Assembly: GCF_963525875.1 (NCBI RefSeq)
Contig: NZ_CAURMG010000005.1
Span: forward strand, 3,406 to 67,405
Length of the DNA: 64,000 bases
Direction: 5' to 3'
From: an uncultured Gemella sp.
GTDB taxonomy: Bacteria; Bacillota; Bacilli; Staphylococcales; Gemellaceae
The notes beneath the pieces were generated by a model. It was not told where the DNA came from. It did no database searches and worked only from the letters and a program-made list of their open reading frames with translations. The first letter of the stretch is position 1, and every line of letters begins with the position of its first letter. Of the stretch, positions 225-9,631 are shown piece by piece. The position numbers and the translations under genes are program-made.

Positions 225-688
225 AGTATACTCTTTTTAGAGGAATAGAAATATTGGGTTACCTTTTTTAGGGGTTGGAAATGTTGGTATATTCTTTTTA
301 GTGTCTCCAGTTTCTCCATATTGTTTTTTTAAAACTGCAAGTGTTGTTGATTATTTTGAATATACACGTTGTATTTTACGTTCTAAGCGTTCTGATTATA
401 CTTTCCCTTGTGATTATACCCCTTGACCTCTTACAAGGAGAATAAACGCTACTATATTCTCTTTTTTAGGGCCGCCGAAAGTGCCGAATACTTTTAACTT
501 TCTCGGGCTTCGCTCGGAGTTCAACTAAATATTACATCTTTTTAGGGGGGCTGAAAAGGCTGGATAGTTTTTTATTTTCTCATTTTCACTCTTTGTTCGC
601 TCTTGGTTCAACCGCTTCTAAGGATAAATAAAAAAGACACCTATTAATAGATGTCCTTTACTTTTTAGGTTCTCCCGAATGTCCTTTT
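225..688 (-). repeat. Array of short cassettes: six CTTTTT(T)AG-anchored units with 9-bp-period direct-repeat cores, plus two 11-bp-period units
   Basis: Anchors at 233, 263, 294, 461, 538 and 661. Paired cores: GTTGG 274/283, TCTCCA 304/313, GCCGAA 474/483, GGCTG 549/558, TCTCC/TGTCC 671/680. 11-bp pairs: CTCGG 502/513 and CTCTT(T/G)GTTC 589/600. The unit at 233 is degenerate. Confidence 0.75.
628..658 (-). terminator. Intrinsic terminator ending the leftward satellite operon
   Basis: Minus strand reads AAGGACATCTATTAATAGGTGTCTTTTTTATTT: a hairpin followed by a U-tract. Confidence 0.7.
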
Positions 689-762
689 TTAATATATCAC
701 CTTTGTAACCCTTTATATTATGAATTTAGAGACCTCATTTTTCTCTTGATCCTAATCAATAG

Positions 763-924
763 CTAAAAATTAAGATCTTCAAATTTATCACTCCATAAAT
801 TATTAAGCTCTTCAAGATTACGAACCCATTGTTTATCAAGTTCTTCAAAGTCAATGCTTTCATCAATCTCCTTAAGACTTTCTTCTACGTTTATTTCTTT
901 AAGCATTTTTTTCATTTCATCCAT
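763..924 (-). CDS. Small acidic hypothetical protein, 53 aa (not in ORF track)
   Basis: Hand translation MDEMKKMLKEINVEESLKEIDESIDFEELDKQWVRNLEELNNLWSDKFEDLNF*; RBS AGAAAGGA upstream. Confidence 0.7.
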   Translation of the reverse strand: MDEMKKMLKEINVEESLKEIDESIDFEELDKQWVRNLEELNNLWSDKFEDLNF

Positions 925-978: not shown

Positions 979-1662
979 TTATAGTTCAATAAAGTATAAA
1001 TAGCTATTGTGAAAGATTAATATGCTGTTAAGAGGTTGATTTAATTTATTAGATATTTCTTCCCAACTCTCAAGATGTATGTATCTTCTTTTGAAAATAT
1101 CTTTCGTAAGCTCATCTGTACACTGCATATTAATAATAGCTTTTAGTATGTTCTGTTTCGCTTGTTCAATCTTAATAAGTAGTCTTTTTCTTCTTCTCTC
1201 TAACTCTTCTATCTCAGATATTATATTAAGACTAAAATCAATACTAGCTTTAATACCTTGTACATTCTCCTTTGAATAGTCAACGGCTTTAATACTATTC
1301 TTATACTTTAACTTTTCTTTAAGCACTTCAATTTTTACGTTTATCAATCCTACATCTTCTGTAAGTCGTTTATATAGCTCTAACTTGTATATTTTTACTT
1401 CTTTTTCATCCTGTTTCTTTCCTAAAACTCCATTTTCTACAAGTAAATTATACATGTTAGCTTTATGCTTTTCTATCCGTTGCCTTTGCCTTTGGCTTTT
1501 AATCTCTTTTTCAAATTTGAAATAAATACTTATCAATTCTTCACGATCAGAATCGGTCAAACTTGATAAGTATTCATCTATCAACTTAATAGCTTCTACT
1601 GGTCTGCTTTCATCTTCTATGTACCAGTCTAATCGGTTACTCTCTGAAGCTGTTAACTGCAT
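979..1662 (-). CDS. Putative phage-type late transcription regulator (RinA/ArpU/DUF1492-like C-terminal sigma region-4 HTH) with N-terminal extension
   Basis: C-terminus DIFKRRYIHLESWEEISNKLN resembles the RY-x4-SWEEIA HTH of this family. Preceded by a coiled-coil and located downstream of rep/ori. Confidence 0.6.
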   Translation of the reverse strand: MQLTASESNRLDWYIEDESRPVEAIKLIDEYLSSLTDSDREELISIYFKFEKEIKSQRQRQRIEKHKANMYNLLVENGVLGKKQDEKEVKIYKLELYKRLTEDVGLINVKIEVLKEKLKYKNSIKAVDYSKENVQGIKASIDFSLNIISEIEELERRRKRLLIKIEQAKQNILKAIINMQCTDELTKDIFKRRYIHLESWEEISNKLNQPLNSILIFHNSYLYFIEL

Positions 1663-1746: not shown

Positions 1747-1774
1747 CTTCTAATCTCCTTTAATTAAATTCTAC

Positions 1775-2110
1775 TGGTAACCAAAGTAACCTTTAGGTTA
1801 CCTTTTGGGTTACCGTCCTAACTCCAATTATATCAACACTTTTAACCCTCAAGGGAGCAGGTAACCTTAACATCAATGTTATTTTATATTTACATGTGAT
1901 ACCTATATATTTTTTATATAATCTTTCTAAATATAAATATTTAGGTTACTAGGTTACCTTATAATCAATAAACCTTTATATGAAGCGGTTTTAAATGGTA
2001 ACCTAAACTGAATAATTAGGTTACTTATTCTTTTGAAAATATATCCGTTAAACGTTGCTATAATAACTTTTCTTTAAAGGTAACCCAAACAATAATCAAG
2101 GTTACCTTTA
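1775..2110. other. Putative satellite replication origin (iterons flanking an AT-rich core)
   Basis: About a dozen GGTAACC/GGTTACC-type heptamers in both orientations flank a near-pure A/T tract (~1870-1942), immediately downstream of the primase-helicase gene. This is the same layout as a SaPI ori. Confidence 0.8.
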
Positions 2111-2123
2111 ACAATCCTTAAAA

Positions 2124-4679
2124 TCATTGTATTTTCACTATACAATGTACTAAGTTATCTGGTATATTTTGACGTTCCACTGGCGGTAAATATTCAACTA
2201 ACTTCCCACGGTCTTCAACTCTAATTTTTGAACGCTCTACTTTATACTTATATCCTACTTCTTTATAAATGTTATTAAGGTGTACAGCTAGGTCTTTTCC
2301 TAAACTACTAGTGATTTTTAAATCATAATAGTTTGCTGTTAAATAATGTCTAAACATATCTTTTATTAAAGGTACTGGTACACGCTCAACTTCATGAAGT
2401 TTTTTTTCTGCATACCAATCTTTTGTAAAACTGTATAAATAATCATTGTCTTCTTTATATTCTTCTAACATTTCATCACTTGCTTTAGTAGTAGAGAACT
2501 TTTCAAAGTTTAGGTGTAAAGCCTTATATAAAATGTATTCCAGTACGATTTCATTTTTTAAATATTCTTCTTTTATACGTCTATCTTGTACTTTTCCGTT
2601 AAAATCTGCATTAAACGGAATTATTAAAAAACGTCTGTAAGCACCTTGGCTCTTATTTCTAATCTTAGGTAGCCTATTAGCACTAAAGATATTCAATAGC
2701 TTTAAAACTGCTGATATTACACTTTTACCTTTCCTATTTATTAGTATTGGATCTCCAGTAATTATACTCATTAAATTACTTATATCATCTAAATACTTGT
2801 TACTAATATCATCACCAATATTACAAACCTTACCTAATAACATCTCTAGCTTAAATTCTCCACTAAAATCTTGAGGGGTTAAGGTGCTTATATTTTCTAT
2901 ACCGATTAAATTAGTAAGCATTGCTTGAAAACTACCTTTACCGTTATTTCCCTCACCGTAAAGTATTACCATTTTCTCTCTTGTATGATTAGGGTTTACA
3001 GCTTCATTTACTATTTCCCAAAGTAATTTAACTATCTCTTCATCACCGTTTGCAATAGATAGAAACCATTTATCAACATCAAAATATGTATCTTTAATAG
3101 CTTCATAGTTCTCTATAGCATGTATATTATACTTTATAGCTAATTTCGAGGTTATAAAGTAAGTAGGATTAAATGGCTCAAGCCGTTTTCCTTTATTGTT
3201 AAAAACTCCATTATTTACTGCGATTAAGTTCTTACTTTCTAATCTAGGTAAAAATGGTAATTGAGTTTTTAAAAACTTGTAAACTTGTGTATATTTTCTA
3301 GGATCAAACCTAAATTCAAGTTTTGCAATTGCTCTATTAATATAGGCTTCTTGACCTGTATATATTCCCTCACTAAAGTTGTAACTATAGATAATAGATG
3401 TATCTTCTGTTTCTCCAGTTAACTTCATAGGTATATGCTTTTTTAACATACTGCTAATAATGTTAAAATTCATTACAGGTACTTTTTCGTTTCCGTCCTT
3501 ATCAATTTTCGTATTTTCCACTCTCCACTGTTCACCAGTAGTAAATAACCTCCAGTGAAGCTCTCCAGTGCTTAAAATAGGTTTATTTAGCTTATATCGT
3601 ACTAAATATGAAAAGTTCTTGTCTTTCTCATTCCCAACTATCTCAAATCTTTGTAACATTGAATAACTTTTCTCATTATCAAAATAATTAGGGTTATTTT
3701 GCCAACTCTTGATAGCGTGGTTTATTTTGTCTTGGTTCTCTTCGCGGTATTTTTCGGGGTCTCTTCCTATGTTTGCTAATAAGTCAGAACACTCACAAGC
3801 AACATCATAGCTTATTATGTTGAAACAAAAATCATAGGTTATTGATAACAATATCCCTAAGGCTCGGTTATAGTTGTTATCATCTTCAGTGTTGATATTT
3901 TCATAATCTAACTCTAAATACCTGTTAAACATCTTTGTATAGTCTTCATCTGAAATACTAACCCTCTTATCAACGTTATAAAAAGCGGTTTTCTTTTTCT
4001 TTTTAACCGCTTCTTGTACTGGATATGGTTCACCATGGTTTATTATAGGTTCATAATCACCACCATTTACTATTAATGGGAGCCCTTGTATTTGATTATA
4101 AGTAAAACTTGCTGGGTCGGGGTCAAGTCCTATTAAGTCAACAATACTTTTCAATGTTGCGAGGTTTTCACCCTCGTTCATTTCCCGACTAGTATCTACT
4201 ATAACCCTAAACCTTGGGTGTACTTCAGTATATGATACTGATTTATATATCATATATGAGTATTTAGACAATTTAGAGCGAATAAGCTCGTAAAATTCTT
4301 CTGTATCTACAGATAAGTATTCATAATCTAATACTGCAAGGTACTTATAAACAAAGCCTGTTTTTAACGTTGATATTTCGCCGTTAACTTTATCAAATTT
4401 ACCTATTAAAAAGTATTCCGCTTCTTTCTTTATCTCATTACATTGAGTAAGATAATGATAGTCTTCATCAGTGTATTTTAAAGTAAAGTTCACGTCTTCT
4501 GCCTTTTTAATATAATGCTGTTTACATTCTTCTACCTTTTCATCAGTTACAATAGGTAAATCAAAGTTTTTAGGTTGATATCTCGTTAAAATATCAAATG
4601 GTGTAAAATCTACTTGTATTTCTTCCCTACCTTTTTTAGCATTAAAGCCTGTTTGTTTATAAAAGTAGTATTCTCTCAA
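2124..4679 (-). CDS. Primase-SF3 helicase fusion (P4-family/D5-like Pri-Rep)
   Basis: Walker A GEGNNGKGS, Walker B-like CNIGDD, IFSANRLP and RRFLIIPF motifs. D5_N-like NLIAVNNGVFN...PFNPTYFITSKL. N-terminal primase-like PRFRVIV. TTG start with GAGGTG RBS. Confidence 0.9.
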   Translation of the reverse strand: MREYYFYKQTGFNAKKGREEIQVDFTPFDILTRYQPKNFDLPIVTDEKVEECKQHYIKKAEDVNFTLKYTDEDYHYLTQCNEIKKEAEYFLIGKFDKVNGEISTLKTGFVYKYLAVLDYEYLSVDTEEFYELIRSKLSKYSYMIYKSVSYTEVHPRFRVIVDTSREMNEGENLATLKSIVDLIGLDPDPASFTYNQIQGLPLIVNGGDYEPIINHGEPYPVQEAVKKKKKTAFYNVDKRVSISDEDYTKMFNRYLELDYENINTEDDNNYNRALGILLSITYDFCFNIISYDVACECSDLLANIGRDPEKYREENQDKINHAIKSWQNNPNYFDNEKSYSMLQRFEIVGNEKDKNFSYLVRYKLNKPILSTGELHWRLFTTGEQWRVENTKIDKDGNEKVPVMNFNIISSMLKKHIPMKLTGETEDTSIIYSYNFSEGIYTGQEAYINRAIAKLEFRFDPRKYTQVYKFLKTQLPFLPRLESKNLIAVNNGVFNNKGKRLEPFNPTYFITSKLAIKYNIHAIENYEAIKDTYFDVDKWFLSIANGDEEIVKLLWEIVNEAVNPNHTREKMVILYGEGNNGKGSFQAMLTNLIGIENISTLTPQDFSGEFKLEMLLGKVCNIGDDISNKYLDDISNLMSIITGDPILINRKGKSVISAVLKLLNIFSANRLPKIRNKSQGAYRRFLIIPFNADFNGKVQDRRIKEEYLKNEIVLEYILYKALHLNFEKFSTTKASDEMLEEYKEDNDYLYSFTKDWYAEKKLHEVERVPVPLIKDMFRHYLTANYYDLKITSSLGKDLAVHLNNIYKEVGYKYKVERSKIRVEDRGKLVEYLPPVERQNIPDNLVHCIVKIQ

Positions 4680-5010: not shown

Positions 5011-5256
5011 TTAAATAGTGTTTTCTCTTAAAAACTTGTTTACTTCACTTTCAAGATAAATATACTGCCTACCTACTTTAGTAGGTCTTAAACCGCGTCT
5101 ATTAAGGTCTGATAAGGTTTCTAACCCTATACCTAAGTTTTCACATAGTTCTGTTTGATTGTATCGTTTATCTTGCTTTATTTCATCCTGTAAAATGTCT
5201 TTGACTATCTCACGAACCGCCTTAATCATTTCTTGTTCAAATTCTTCACTAAACAT
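5011..5256 (-). CDS. Excisionase-like winged HTH protein (81 aa from MFSEEF)
   Basis: YNQTELCENLGIGLETL...GLRPTKVGRQYIYLESEV is typical of HTH_17/Xis proteins. RBS AAAGGAG supports the start at 5256 rather than 5349. Confidence 0.7.
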   Translation of the reverse strand: MFSEEFEQEMIKAVREIVKDILQDEIKQDKRYNQTELCENLGIGLETLSDLNRRGLRPTKVGRQYIYLESEVNKFLRENTI

Positions 5257-5270
5257 ATAATCACGCTCCT

Positions 5271-5381
5271 TTAATAAATGCTGTCCATTAGCATAGCTAG
5301 TATATAAATAAATGCTGTTATGAATGGTATAAATACCACTGCACAACAAAAAGTATTAATGTATAGATCTTTGTTTTCCAT
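5271..5381 (-). CDS. 36-aa single-pass membrane peptide (not in ORF track)
   Basis: MENKDLYINTFCCAVVFIPFITAFIYILAMLMDSIY*; RBS AGAAAGGA; about 20 uninterrupted hydrophobic residues. Confidence 0.65.
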   Translation of the reverse strand: MENKDLYINTFCCAVVFIPFITAFIYILAMLMDSIY

Positions 5382-5513: not shown

Positions 5514-5723
5514 TTAAAAAAAAATACTTTCTAAAGTCTCATTAGGAAAACTTTCCTTAAAGTAGTTAGTAAGTATAACTTTTTCACTATCGGAAAATCT
5601 CTGTTTACGTTCCTTTTTACAATAAGTTCCTTGAGATATATTCAAATAATTAGCCATTTCAGACTGACTTTTATTTAAAGCCTCTCTTAGCGCTTTTATT
5701 TTATTAATTTTAACCACGCTCAT
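5514..5723 (-). CDS. Cro/Str-like XRE HTH regulator (69 aa from MSVVK)
   Basis: IKALREALNKSQSEMANYLNISQGTYCKKE is an XRE HTH; RBS GAAAGGAG before the ATG at 5723; divergent from the repressor. Confidence 0.85.
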   Translation of the reverse strand: MSVVKINKIKALREALNKSQSEMANYLNISQGTYCKKERKQRFSDSEKVILTNYFKESFPNETLESIFF

Positions 5724-5752
5724 ATAATCCACTCCTTTCATAATATTTAAAA

Positions 5753-5911: not shown

Positions 5912-6802
5912 ATGAAATATAATATAAACAAACTCAAAGTAAGTGAACGTATATTTAGAATAAGAAATAGTCTAAAATTAACATTAGAGCAGTTCGGAAA
6001 ACTTGATAATTTGAATGCTTCTAAAAGTATTGTTTTACGTTGGGAAAATGGAACATCATTACCTAATCGATCAAGATTAGAAATAATTGCTAAAAAAGGA
6101 AATATTACTGTTAATGAGTTGTTATACGGTTCTATTGATGAATTCTTAGAAAACAATTTAGAAAACTTTATATTAAATAATTCTAATATTGCAACTGACT
6201 TCCTTTGTTTTGATTTTCTAGAGATTACTAAAAAATATCTTAAAAGTAAATCAAAAACAATTAATGATATATCTGACATCATTAACTTACTTGAAAAGGA
6301 CTTTGACAAAATACTAGACTATGCACTAGATGACTATATACAATCTAATTTATTTTTATTAGAGAAATATAATCATTTAGTTTTAAATATTTTAGATGAT
6401 GAACCTGCATTGAAACATGCTATTTATGATATTAGTAAAGATGATACAAGCAAATTAAGTATATATCAAAATGTATTATTAGATGAAAATATACCATATA
6501 ACTTTACTGAATTACCAAAAGACTTTGATTATTATAAGGCGTTATTAAGTATTTTAAAAGGTGATAATATTAGCAATAAATACCAAATTCTCCCTTTTTT
6601 CACTGACTTAATAGACACTATAAAATACCGATTAAGGTTAACTTACAGTAATGATAAAATGTATCAAGAAATACAGGATACTATTGAAAAGGTATTAGAA
6701 AATAATGGTGTATTTGAAATACCTTATAAAGAAGCGGTAATAAATAACTTAACTACTGCAATTATAGACAAAGTAATAGAAATAACTGAAGCTAACAATT
6801 AA
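5912..6802 (+). CDS. Stl/CI-like master repressor (N-terminal XRE HTH, large C-terminal domain)
   Basis: ERIFRIRNSLKLTLEQFG...SIVLRWENGTSLPN...VNELLYG; divergent from the Cro-like gene; no obvious S24 peptidase motif seen. Confidence 0.85.
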   Translation: MKYNINKLKVSERIFRIRNSLKLTLEQFGKLDNLNASKSIVLRWENGTSLPNRSRLEIIAKKGNITVNELLYGSIDEFLENNLENFILNNSNIATDFLCFDFLEITKKYLKSKSKTINDISDIINLLEKDFDKILDYALDDYIQSNLFLLEKYNHLVLNILDDEPALKHAIYDISKDDTSKLSIYQNVLLDENIPYNFTELPKDFDYYKALLSILKGDNISNKYQILPFFTDLIDTIKYRLRLTYSNDKMYQEIQDTIEKVLENNGVFEIPYKEAVINNLTTAIIDKVIEITEANN

Positions 6803-6869: not shown

Positions 6870-7916
6870 ATGAAAGATATAATCGGAACTGATGTTCTTA
6901 TATTACATTATATTAATAAAAATAGCCGTGCTTCTGAACTTAACCAAAACTTTTGGAAAGAAAAATACTATAACGATAATGAAAAATCATTACAAAGACT
7001 TTTAGACGGTGGATATATTGAGTATAGAGAAGATTGCTTCACTTCCTTAAATAAATTAAAGGTAGACGAACTAAAAAATATACTTCAATTAGAAGATTTA
7101 AAGACTACTGGAAGAAAAACAGAATTAATAGAACGTATAATAAATATCGCTTCTTTAAACAATTATCAAGAATTCATAAAAAAAGAACGTGTTATAACTT
7201 CTAAAGGTTCTAAAATAGTAAATAGTACTGATTTTGTATATTTGTTACATAATTACAATGTAGGTTATCCATGTGATGTATATAACTGTTACTTATCGAA
7301 TAAAGAACTAAATAAGGTGGATCTAGTTATAAAATTTATTGAAAGTAAATGTACTTTCGAAAGAGAAATATACACAAATTCTAATCATGCTTTTATCTAC
7401 AGTCAACTCGCAGAAGTATTAATAAAGTATAGTGATGAAAATAAAGCCTTATATTATTTGTTAAAAAGTTGTTTTGAGTACCTTTCTAATGAATTGCTAG
7501 ACTATTCAACAAATACTTTAAAATCTTTCAAAGAACAAGTAAACGGAATAGATTTTTATGCTAATAAAATTAAAATTTTATTACAAGCCAATTCTGATTT
7601 AAAGAATAATTTAACTTTATACTATCAAGAGCTAACAAACCTATATACATTACACTATTTCACTAATGAAGAAATAGAAAGCCTGATTACTGCTTTTGCT
7701 TTAAAAAACTCTCATGGGGTTGATAGTATCATAAATAGAATTTACAAAAGGAATAAAGAACAAGGAAAATTAAAAAATCCTTATGAAGAGTTAGACAAAA
7801 ACTTAGAATTATACAGACAAAAAAAAGAAGAAAAATTATTATTAGAGAATAAAAATAAAGAAAAGAAAAAAGGTTTCTTTAATTCTTTAATGAATTTCAT
7901 TTTAAAAGAAAAGTGA
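6870..7916 (+). CDS. SAP-domain-containing accessory protein
   Basis: LNKLKVDELKNILQLEDLKTTGRKTELIERI matches the SAP motif; sits in the cargo slot between repressor and integrase. Confidence 0.7.
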   Translation: MKDIIGTDVLILHYINKNSRASELNQNFWKEKYYNDNEKSLQRLLDGGYIEYREDCFTSLNKLKVDELKNILQLEDLKTTGRKTELIERIINIASLNNYQEFIKKERVITSKGSKIVNSTDFVYLLHNYNVGYPCDVYNCYLSNKELNKVDLVIKFIESKCTFEREIYTNSNHAFIYSQLAEVLIKYSDENKALYYLLKSCFEYLSNELLDYSTNTLKSFKEQVNGIDFYANKIKILLQANSDLKNNLTLYYQELTNLYTLHYFTNEEIESLITAFALKNSHGVDSIINRIYKRNKEQGKLKNPYEELDKNLELYRQKKEEKLLLENKNKEKKKGFFNSLMNFILKEK

Positions 7917-8242
7917 TTAATCTATATTAAGCTAAAGTAGGAATTTAAAAAGCACCAGTAAAAATTACCAGTGCTTAAAAATTGTATAAAATACTTTGAT
8001 AAATAGTTTCTGTATTAAAGAATATAATAGCATTATACCATATAAACGCTGTTATATCAAGGTTTCCGCTTCTCACTTAAAATTACAAGCCATTTAAACC
8101 GCTTCTAAGCGTTCTAATTATCAAGAGGTGTAATTACTTACCTAATCTTTAAAAGTCTCACCACACCCATTATATGATGTGGTTTTACCTAATCATTTAT
8201 TGATTTCTTTGATATGTGCTAGATAGAAAGGAAATGATAAAA

Positions 8243-9391
8243 ATGATTAAACAATATACAAAAAAATCAGACAGAAAAAAGTACTATACTGTACATATTT
8301 ATCTTGGAAAAGATGAGATTACTGGAAAAGATAGATATACAACTAGACGCGGTTTTAAAACTAAAAAAGAAGCTCTACTATGTGAAGCTAAGATTAAAAC
8401 TGAAATAGCTACTAATGGCTTATTAAATACAGATGTTACAACATTTAAAGAAATATATGAATTATGGTATGAGGGTTACCAACATACTATTAAAGAAAGT
8501 ACTTTAGTTGTAAACTCATACGTGTTTAAACTATTACTTGATAAATTAGAACATGTTCAACTAAAAAAGATAACATTGCCTTTTTGTCAAAAAATCATTA
8601 CTAATTACAGTAAAAAATTTTCATTATCAACACTTAAAAAAATCAAAATATATGGCGGTATGATTTTTGATTATGCTGTTAAAATGAAAGTTATCTACAG
8701 TAACCCTATGAAAGATGTATTACTACCAAAAAAGCAAGTTGATATTACTAGCAATGATAAGGATTTATATTACTCTAAAGATGAATTAAATCACTTTCTA
8801 AAACTAGTAGATAGTACAAACGATATAAAGCTTTCTGCAATGTTTAGGGTGCTAGCTTATACTGGTATTCGTAAAGGTGAGTTACAGGCTCTTGAATGGT
8901 CTGATATTGACTTTACCAACAATACTATAAACATCAATAAGACTTTAGCTATAAGTAGTGAGTATAAGATAAAAGTTCAGACACCTAAAAGTAAAAGTAG
9001 TATAAGAAAAATTAGTATTGATGAAGAAACTAAGCTAATACTTAAACGTTGGAAAGCTAAACAAAGAGAATTGTTTTTCTCTCTAGGTACTAGAGTAAAG
9101 AAAAATCAACTATGCTTTACCAACGATATCACAAATGATTATTTATATCTTAACTTTACCAATGATAAATTAAGTAAGATATGCAAGAAACACAAGTTTA
9201 AAGAAATAAAGATACATGGCTTTAGGCATACACATTGTAGTTTACTTTTTGAAAGTGGCTTTACTATTCAAGAAGTACAAGATAGATTAGGTCACTCTGA
9301 CTTAAAAACAACAATGAGTGTTTATGCTCACGTAACGGAAAAACAACGAGATAATATGGCTGACAAATTTGCTAAATTTATGGCTTTATAA
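8243..9391 (+). CDS. int: Tyrosine recombinase / site-specific integrase
   Basis: N-terminal arm-binding RRGFKTKKEA; catalytic YTGIRKGEL, TPK, HGFRHTH, LGHS...TMSVYAH. Start placed at ATG 8243 by RBS spacing (ORF track gives 8216). Confidence 0.95.
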   Translation: MIKQYTKKSDRKKYYTVHIYLGKDEITGKDRYTTRRGFKTKKEALLCEAKIKTEIATNGLLNTDVTTFKEIYELWYEGYQHTIKESTLVVNSYVFKLLLDKLEHVQLKKITLPFCQKIITNYSKKFSLSTLKKIKIYGGMIFDYAVKMKVIYSNPMKDVLLPKKQVDITSNDKDLYYSKDELNHFLKLVDSTNDIKLSAMFRVLAYTGIRKGELQALEWSDIDFTNNTININKTLAISSEYKIKVQTPKSKSSIRKISIDEETKLILKRWKAKQRELFFSLGTRVKKNQLCFTNDITNDYLYLNFTNDKLSKICKKHKFKEIKIHGFRHTHCSLLFESGFTIQEVQDRLGHSDLKTTMSVYAHVTEKQRDNMADKFAKFMAL

Positions 9392-9395
9392 AAAT

Positions 9396-9470
9396 ATGGC
9401 ATTCAAATGGCATTCAAATGGCATTCAAGTGGCAAAACAAAAAGCCTTAAACGTTGATACTTTAAGGCTT
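9396..9470 (+). repeat. att-arm region: 3 tandem 11-mers ATGGCATTCAA plus a palindrome
   Basis: Copies at 9396, 9407 and 9418, then a partial GTGGCA; followed by AAGCCTTAA-acgttgatact-TTAAGGCTT just before the rpmG stop. Confidence 0.75.
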
Positions 9471-9481
9471 CTCTAACTTTA

Positions 9482-9631
9482 TTATTTAGTTTCTCTGTGT
9501 AAAGTCACTTTTTTTAATCTTGGACAGTATTTTTTAAGTTCAATACGGTCTGGATTATTTCTTTTGTTCTTTTTAGTAATGTAGTTTCTGTCACCACATT
9601 CTGTACAAGCTAATGTTACATTTACGCGCAT
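9482..9631 (-). CDS. rpmG: 50S ribosomal protein L33 (not in ORF track)
   Basis: Hand translation [58 protein letters not shown]. Confidence 0.98.

Follow-up and report, generated by a model that had tools for sequence, protein, structure and literature searches.

Mimicry of a helper packaging signal at a single site has already been published for the phage satellites PLE, EfCIV583 and EcCICFT073. P4, SaPIbov5 and EfCIV583 are named as passive packaging-signal mimics (PMC11417361, PMC9006064), and transfer of PLE needs 14 bp that are identical to ICP1, inside an 89-bp stretch belonging to the helper pac region (PMC11417361). EcCICFT073 has two functional cos sites, which are used by more than one phage (PMC6092414). 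The locus described here resembles PLE in that a satellite carries a short stretch of helper-type phage sequence, from the pac region in PLE and from inside terS here; PLE, however, has one site for one helper plus its own Gpi, GpsA and GpsB, whereas here there are eight units, two TerS families and no packaging protein. Likewise, EfCIV583, SaPIbov5 and P4 are satellites that lack, or do not rely on, their own TerS and are recognised by the helper terminase, as is proposed here, and EfCIV583 is also a PICI of a Gram-positive coccus; each of these three offers just one helper signal, or a cos together with a pac, and no diversified panel is described in the sources consulted (PMC11417361, PMC9006064). 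EcCICFT073 is similar in carrying several helper packaging sites on one island, but there the two sites are cut sites (cos) that match the helper cosN exactly, whereas those described here are putative headful TerS recognition sites, all different. No description of a diversified, multi-specificity panel of terS sites was found in the full-text literature searched, a scope that leaves most subscription papers outside.

In P22 and Sf6, pac lies inside terS. In SPP1, pac spans the terS start, and the TerS HTH domain of SPP1/SF6 bound pac DNA without sequence preference, the repeats being immaterial (PMC4737164). Direct repeats at the terS gene, as in SPP1, P22 and Sf6, are also found in the phages with phrog_309-type terS treated below; HTH binding of SF6 is sequence-independent in vitro, whereas the phrog_309 repeat tracks residues of the recognition helix. 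The main text of the Streptococcus satellite survey contains no occurrence of the word 'terminase' (PMC6813308).

The satellite element and its array

The window, that is, the whole stretch of 64,000 nucleotides analysed, comes from an uncultured Gemella sp. and begins inside an integrated PICI-like satellite of ~11 kb, of which the array forms the distal end. The element has the following features in the window:

763..924, minus strand: acidic ORF of 53 aa, without family match
979..1662, minus strand: 227-aa ArpU/RinA-like regulator of the satellite (phrog_36, E 3.9e-5; phrog_248, E 0.009)
1770..2110, minus strand: origin-like region with many GGTAACC/GGTTACC repeats, read directly from the sequence
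2124..4679, minus strand: primase-helicase (D5-like), by family match
5011..5349, minus strand: excisionase-like HTH protein, by family match
5514..5741, minus strand: Cro-like repressor, divergent from the CI-like gene
5912..6802, plus strand: CI-like repressor, divergent from the Cro-like gene
8216..9391, plus strand: tyrosine integrase, by family match
9433..9498, plus strand: 66-nt direct repeat at the element end; its partner ~1.6 kb before the window start gives an element of ~11.1 kb

As in other PICIs, there are an integrase, a divergent repressor pair, a primase-replication module and flanking direct repeats, and the size is below ~20 kb. Structural, lysis and large-terminase families were all absent from the nine ORFs in the window and the three cargo ORFs of the element, again as in PICIs. 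The element does not have the small terminase of SaPI1-type PICIs: no terS family match was obtained among its ORFs, and tblastn with eight TerS or TerS-like queries gave no match in the element region. The region 1770..2110 is probably the replication origin. No relatives of the 227-aa protein were found in IMG/VR.

The element also carries cargo. A 348-aa SAP-domain gene (6870-7916) lies between the CI gene and the integrase; its size is conserved in L609, and it gave no match to defence models. About four copies of a 10-nt unit (9396-9432) separate the integrase stop from the 66-nt end repeat, and the matching place at the other element end has a different short repeat. Downstream of the array on the minus strand is a three-gene cargo operon encoding proteins of 179 aa, 160 aa and 124 aa, the last being SecB-like (L608:521-1927, contig 2021-3427). 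The operon is located mostly before the window start, and its first gene begins at window position 22. The SecB-like protein matches PADLOC PD-T4-9_C (E 4e-18), and the 179-aa and 160-aa genes gave no defence-model match. From its gene content, the operon looks like a toxin-antitoxin-chaperone anti-phage system; PD-T4-9 is also named CmdTAC.

The array consists of eight units on the minus strand (233-690), six of which are 9-bp-spaced and end in a CTAAAAAG anchor and two of which are 11-bp-spaced. Counted only as far as the anchor, the 9-bp units listed below at 661..690, 538..571 and 461..493 occupy 661-684, 538-562 and 461-487. These units and the features among them are as follows:

233..257, minus strand: worn 9-bp unit (CCAAT/CTATT); 28/36 nt to the same-genus terS L144
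263..287, minus strand: 9-bp unit, core CCAAC/CCAAC; matrix 19.6 bits
294..318, minus strand: 9-bp unit, core TGGAG/TGGAG, with worn spacer; score 18 against a shuffle maximum of 14
365..448, minus strand: conserved middle block, which combines a short inverted repeat with a direct repeat of AGAAC; without trace to a terS gene
461..493, minus strand: 9-bp unit, core CGGCA/CGGCG; 31/32 nt to the same-genus prophage terS L142; matrix 42.2 bits
502..524, minus strand: 11-bp-spaced unit of the R-T-P-S-E-A-R-E type; phrog_2412-like coding-site pattern
538..571, minus strand: 9-bp unit, core CAGCC/CAGCC; 37/47 nt (79%) to the same-genus prophage terS L143; matrix 25.7 bits
589..611, minus strand: 11-bp-spaced unit of the R-T-K-S-E-Q-R-E type; copied from the site at the 5' end of phrog_2412-like genes
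630..659, minus strand: intrinsic terminator-like hairpin, which ends the replication/ArpU-like operon
661..690, minus strand: worn 9-bp unit (AGGAC/GGGAG), copy of the phrog_309 terS site; local score 16 against a shuffle maximum of 15, the weakest unit
694..711, minus strand: further worn 9-bp-period repeat, intact in L002, L004, L005 and L009

The first-pass annotation had listed the units as operator-like cassettes on the minus strand. All of them exist and, as shown below, they exceed what chance would give, although the register of two of them had been one base off. The array was rightly placed mostly beyond the operon terminator, all units but one being located past the stem 659-632. 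Blocks that had been read as duplicates do resemble each other (463-495/539-571, 76%; 509-525/596-612, 82%), but duplication followed by divergence is not the whole origin of the units, because several match distinct phage terS versions directly. Promoter-like sites at the array numbered 5 against 5.4 +/- 2.1 expected, and none was tied to any unit, which speaks against the suggested set of helper-sensing promoters. The TATACT hexamer and the GGTTACC at 257-263, earlier taken for a -10-like element and an ori-type site, probably mark the worn Lys-Tyr codons that open each terS-derived unit. An Rfam search of the array gave a single weak match (E 0.31), far under the gathering score. The motif of the middle block occurs in 11/15 related loci, including elements without terS-type units; this block may be a signal of its own, for packaging or for recombination.

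Terminase and terL-adjacent genes as the source of the units

A pattern derived from the units had 87 matching stretches in IMG/VR, 80 of which were fetched. The first-pass annotation had proposed searching the cores against prophages, and the pattern matches fall mostly in small-terminase genes: 71 of the 80 are located in frame within terS, ~150 nt past the start and mostly with a terL-like gene next. The DNA at this site encodes K-K-Y-P-D-I-S-D-x-L-K-K. The remaining nine comprise two terS-like fragments, two arrays (L064 and L125), two single non-coding copies and three chance-looking matches. We also built a weight matrix from 54 phage terS sites from IMG/VR, with no term for the repeat. 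Its top three places in 3.5 Mb (both genome strands) are units of the window, at 42.2, 25.7 and 19.6 bits, and the runner-up outside these three reached 14.2 bits. Furthermore, all six 9-bp units aligned to a phage terS site above the best of 200 shuffles each (weakest 16 vs 15).

The source gene from the same genus matches phrog_309 'terminase small subunit' (E 1e-59), and the source genes have what is expected of a small terminase: the family match, the position before terL and an N-terminal HTH. This terS family is present in 8/40 genomes of the host family and also in phages Tuc2009, phiFL2A and SMP. The TGGAG core is found in the terS of L147, L157 and L190 and in Tuc2009 orf30; the exact CCAAC core is absent among the 31 cores of the collected terS set. 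Units of related satellites match the prophage terS L146 at 35/37 and 36/39 nt, and close copies of the L142, L143, L144 and L146 sites are all carried by related satellites. On these sequence matches, the six 9-bp units are copies of a site inside phrog_309 phage terS genes, and the satellite DNA matches the terS/packaging region of phages, as is expected of packaging-signal mimicry.

Three helper terS queries found no resident helper terS in the host genome (92% complete) and no match in 19 related element regions. Neither a PDB sequence search nor Foldseek found a significant match to phrog_309 TerS. Its modelled N-terminal domain is an HTH, and the best structural match, Sf6 TerS (Z 4.7, rmsd 2.5, 55 residues), is weak and ties with generic HTH domains. 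As another source, PF03592-type terS (11 loci, 8/40 genomes) was rejected, since short-word BLAST gave no match to the array or the middle block. An entire phrog_309-type terS homologue (61% identity) is found in MK448388.1 (Streptococcus satellite Javan259); this satellite appears to have captured the whole terS gene, not just the site.

The 11-bp units have another source. The satellite form of the 11-bp pattern had 68 matching stretches, 64 of them on contigs <20 kb and often in rows with differing cores. The coding form had >120 matches, and the 80 fetched represent 38 distinct sequences, all of which are near the start of a gene that reads N-L-x-P-x-x-x-R-T-x-S-E-x-R-E-I-x-x-K-G-G. One of these members matches phrog_2412, listed by PHROGs as of unknown function. 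A Pfam TerL match follows, or is fused to, the phrog_2412-like gene in 11 of the 15 tested, and such a gene precedes terL in phages MM1 and EJ-1; EJ-1 ORF38, immediately before terL, contains a stretch found on streptococcal satellites. We take Tuc2009, MM1 and EJ-1 to be headful packaging phages. The free triplet of the site agrees between the halves in 13/20 non-redundant genes against 4.0 expected, despite the two halves being read in different frames. By sequence, the two 11-bp units are copies of a site in the phrog_2412-like gene that lies before, or is fused to, terL. No phrog_2412-like gene turned up in the 40 genomes of the host family; the controls of this search gave no match either.

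Related sequences show several variations on this theme. In L471, L472, L529 and kin, the phrog_2412-like domain is joined to the TerL N-terminus, forming a natural one-chain terminase. L402-L469 (e.g., L405, L421, L427, L461) are small streptococcal-satellite-like contigs with 11-bp units and some 9-bp units per row; the rows also hold other short conserved pieces, including a GC-rich 11-mer, a candidate cos-type end. Satellite ArpU-like genes of L387/L626 and L002 have 11-bp-type repeats within their variable middle part.

Covariation of the repeat and the recognition helix

For covariation, the terS set was chosen by a motif outside the site (80 of >120 matches listed); 72 genes were parsed, six unparsed and two with a shifted offset were dropped, and 54 were left after removal of those at least 85% alike. 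Both half-sites are identical in 34 of these 54 non-redundant genes. Four-fold degenerate third positions agree between the half-sites in 28/33 cases against 14.2 expected, and among lags 3, 6, 9 and 12 the excess is unique to lag 9 and to the terS-internal site. The terS-internal repeat is under DNA-level constraint.

Helix positions were counted back from a conserved Thr in the recognition helix, which spans residues 37-46 of the model. Arg at -2 goes with a final half-site C in 18/18 genes (11/57 of the others), and Tyr at -2 with C at base 4 in 14/16 (0/59). At -1, Arg goes with xGCAG in 5/5 (0/70 of the others) and Ala with GC in 4/6 (0/69). On a tree built without those columns, these residue states each change 3 to 12 times, and an independent-pairs test, too low in power to reach significance, gave 1 to 4 supported pairs and 0 opposite among the tests listed. 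In the sequences compared, the repeat tracks two residues of the TerS recognition helix. This association could stem from cassette exchange, because the helix codons are only ~30 nt away from the repeat site. The TerS of L142, L143, L144 and L146 are near-identical same-genus proteins in which helix and site differ jointly, and their near-identity outside helix and site resembles the swap of a short specificity cassette.

Panels in related satellites

The first-pass annotation had also suggested comparing related satellites, and this comparison revealed reshuffled panels, close relatives differing in unit number and order. Of 19 regions around related elements, nine hold at least two 9-bp units and three hold just one unit; a further region, at a contig end, has one 9-bp and two 11-bp units. 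The other six are without units, and in one of them no satellite gene was matched. In public-run contigs of relatives (<=22% of words shared), the array is rearranged and the flanking gene is aligned. The cargo downstream of panels varies among elements. The two elements among these 19 regions that have a TerS-like HTH gene of their own carry none or one weak unit.

Beyond the genus, records of Peptococcaceae, Clostridia, Ruminococcus, Oscillospiraceae and Lactococcus also hold panels, with integrase, primase or repressor genes nearby. In total, the arrays are found in at least nine elements outside the genus and in ten inside it. A loose two-anchor contig scan found at least two terS-type units in 7 of the 80 fetched matches, among the matches listed. 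Three of the nine arrays outside the genus adjoin a TerS-like gene that belongs to the same element. The nine units of L125 all differ in core.

Two regularities hold across the panels. In all 13 same-family elements that have any unit, the units are co-oriented with the replication operon. No opposite-strand unit was found in 17 arrays, a search in which the pattern forces two anchors onto the same strand and leaves further units and the second family free. At 55 loci anchored on the 11-bp unit, eight 9-bp units are on the same strand and none on the opposite one, and none of the lone units ~7 kb away is reversed either. The other regularity is non-redundancy. In 13 arrays, from which the close duplicates L003, L005, L007, L008 and L010 were left out, none of 128 pairs of cores is a repeat; 2.9 are expected by reshuffling (p 0.04) and 7.3 from terS frequencies (p 0.0004). 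Of 60 array cores, 37 occur in the terS set, against 27.5 for column shuffles, and 23, including CCAAC, do not.

We consider it likely that the array is a non-redundant panel of putative helper TerS recognition (pac-type) sites, by which the satellite would be packaged by many helpers; it is most likely a passive packaging 'passport book'. Headful-type helpers would have a short direct repeat inside their own terS gene that is read by their own TerS and differs among phages in step with the recognition helix. The satellite has no terS and, in this proposal, would therefore hold diverse non-coding copies of the site, which come from two unrelated TerS families and all point one way. When a helper with matching TerS is induced or infects, TerS would bind a copy on the replicating satellite concatemer and recruit TerL, and headful packaging would begin in a direction set by the single orientation of the units. 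Each unit would serve one TerS specificity, and selection would prefer new specificities over extra copies. Three steps of this account are inferred from the sequences: the repeat is bound by TerS, it serves the phages as their pac recognition site, and packaging is initiated at the satellite copies. A wider reading, slightly less likely than not, is that satellites of Bacillota may keep an actively updated, non-redundant library of TerS sites, from which helpers may escape by swapping the two-residue helix code plus the site.

A repeat within terS is not necessarily a site for TerS, because HTH binding of SPP1/SF6 lacked sequence preference, and no mapped pac site for phrog_309 or phrog_2412 phages was found in the full-text literature searched. 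The record end of TVCOM_ph1 was considered as a mapped cut and rejected, being merely a rotation to terL. The first-pass annotation had proposed a DNA panel aimed at proteins from several helpers, which is supported, and had offered three roles for it, of which the evidence, with matches inside terS, favours packaging signals. TerS titration, another of these roles, ranks second and is the main rival: the copies would act as a broad decoy that titrates helper TerS on many replicating satellite genomes, not as a packaging start. It is compatible with the packaging panel but, taken as the explanation, unlikely. Several units are worn, and at 25-35 nt they are shorter than many complete pac regions, whose flanks are often needed (PMC11417361); in addition, the real signal for packaging may be the conserved block 365-448, and in the three outside arrays that adjoin a TerS-like gene, that gene could do the packaging. 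A decoy needs no fixed orientation, yet no unit is reversed, even ~7 kb off, and titration would profit from repeated copies, yet cores never repeat; the element described here also has no other terminase part. Alternatively, the site may be an operator by which TerS autoregulates inside its own gene, and the satellite copies would shift helper late-gene expression or sense TerS for cargo. Self-binding within the gene suits both roles, the helix-site code indicates binding at most, not cutting, and the toxin-antitoxin-chaperone-like operon begins just downstream of the array. However, there is no promoter excess at the units, the downstream cargo is not constant, and a pac that spans the terS start is the known arrangement of SPP1 (PMC4737164); we regard the operator as improbable.

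Neutral debris, in which phage terS fragments gained by recombination or slippage are decaying, would agree with the wear of 3/8 units and with the rearrangement of arrays between close relatives. It is very improbable, in that just a ~30-nt repeat was copied, from two unrelated gene families, and that the panels inside and outside the genus share a single orientation and non-redundant cores. Least probable of all is that the units are recognised by the 227-aa ArpU/RinA-like protein of the satellite itself or by late activators of helpers, as the first-pass annotation had considered. Direct repeats of 9 to 11 bp do follow ArpU-like genes in related prophages, and one satellite ArpU-like gene contains an 11-bp-type repeat (L387/L626), but the prophage promoter repeats, including those downstream of 27 phrog_36 matches, have no anchor, and at the units no repeat of the activator-downstream type at a fixed distance to a -10 box was found. 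Moreover, panels differ among elements whose ArpU-like proteins are 90-91% identical, the CCAAC unit is common to elements whose ArpU-like protein is ~30% identical, and several elements with an ArpU-like gene have no unit.

The proposed panel would bear on the question of how terminase-less satellites of streptococci and their relatives are packaged. If true, it would account for the ability of a single island to travel with many unrelated phages; while the island is integrated, its sites would in addition serve as starting points from which helpers transduce neighbouring DNA. The link of two helix residues to a 5-bp half-site conflicts with the sequence-independent binding reported for SF6 and makes the DNA choice of pac-type TerS directly testable. 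If true, this code would make sequence data sufficient to predict pac sites, TerS specificity and which helper pairs with which satellite, and an array could be read as the history of the helpers exploited by its satellite lineage.
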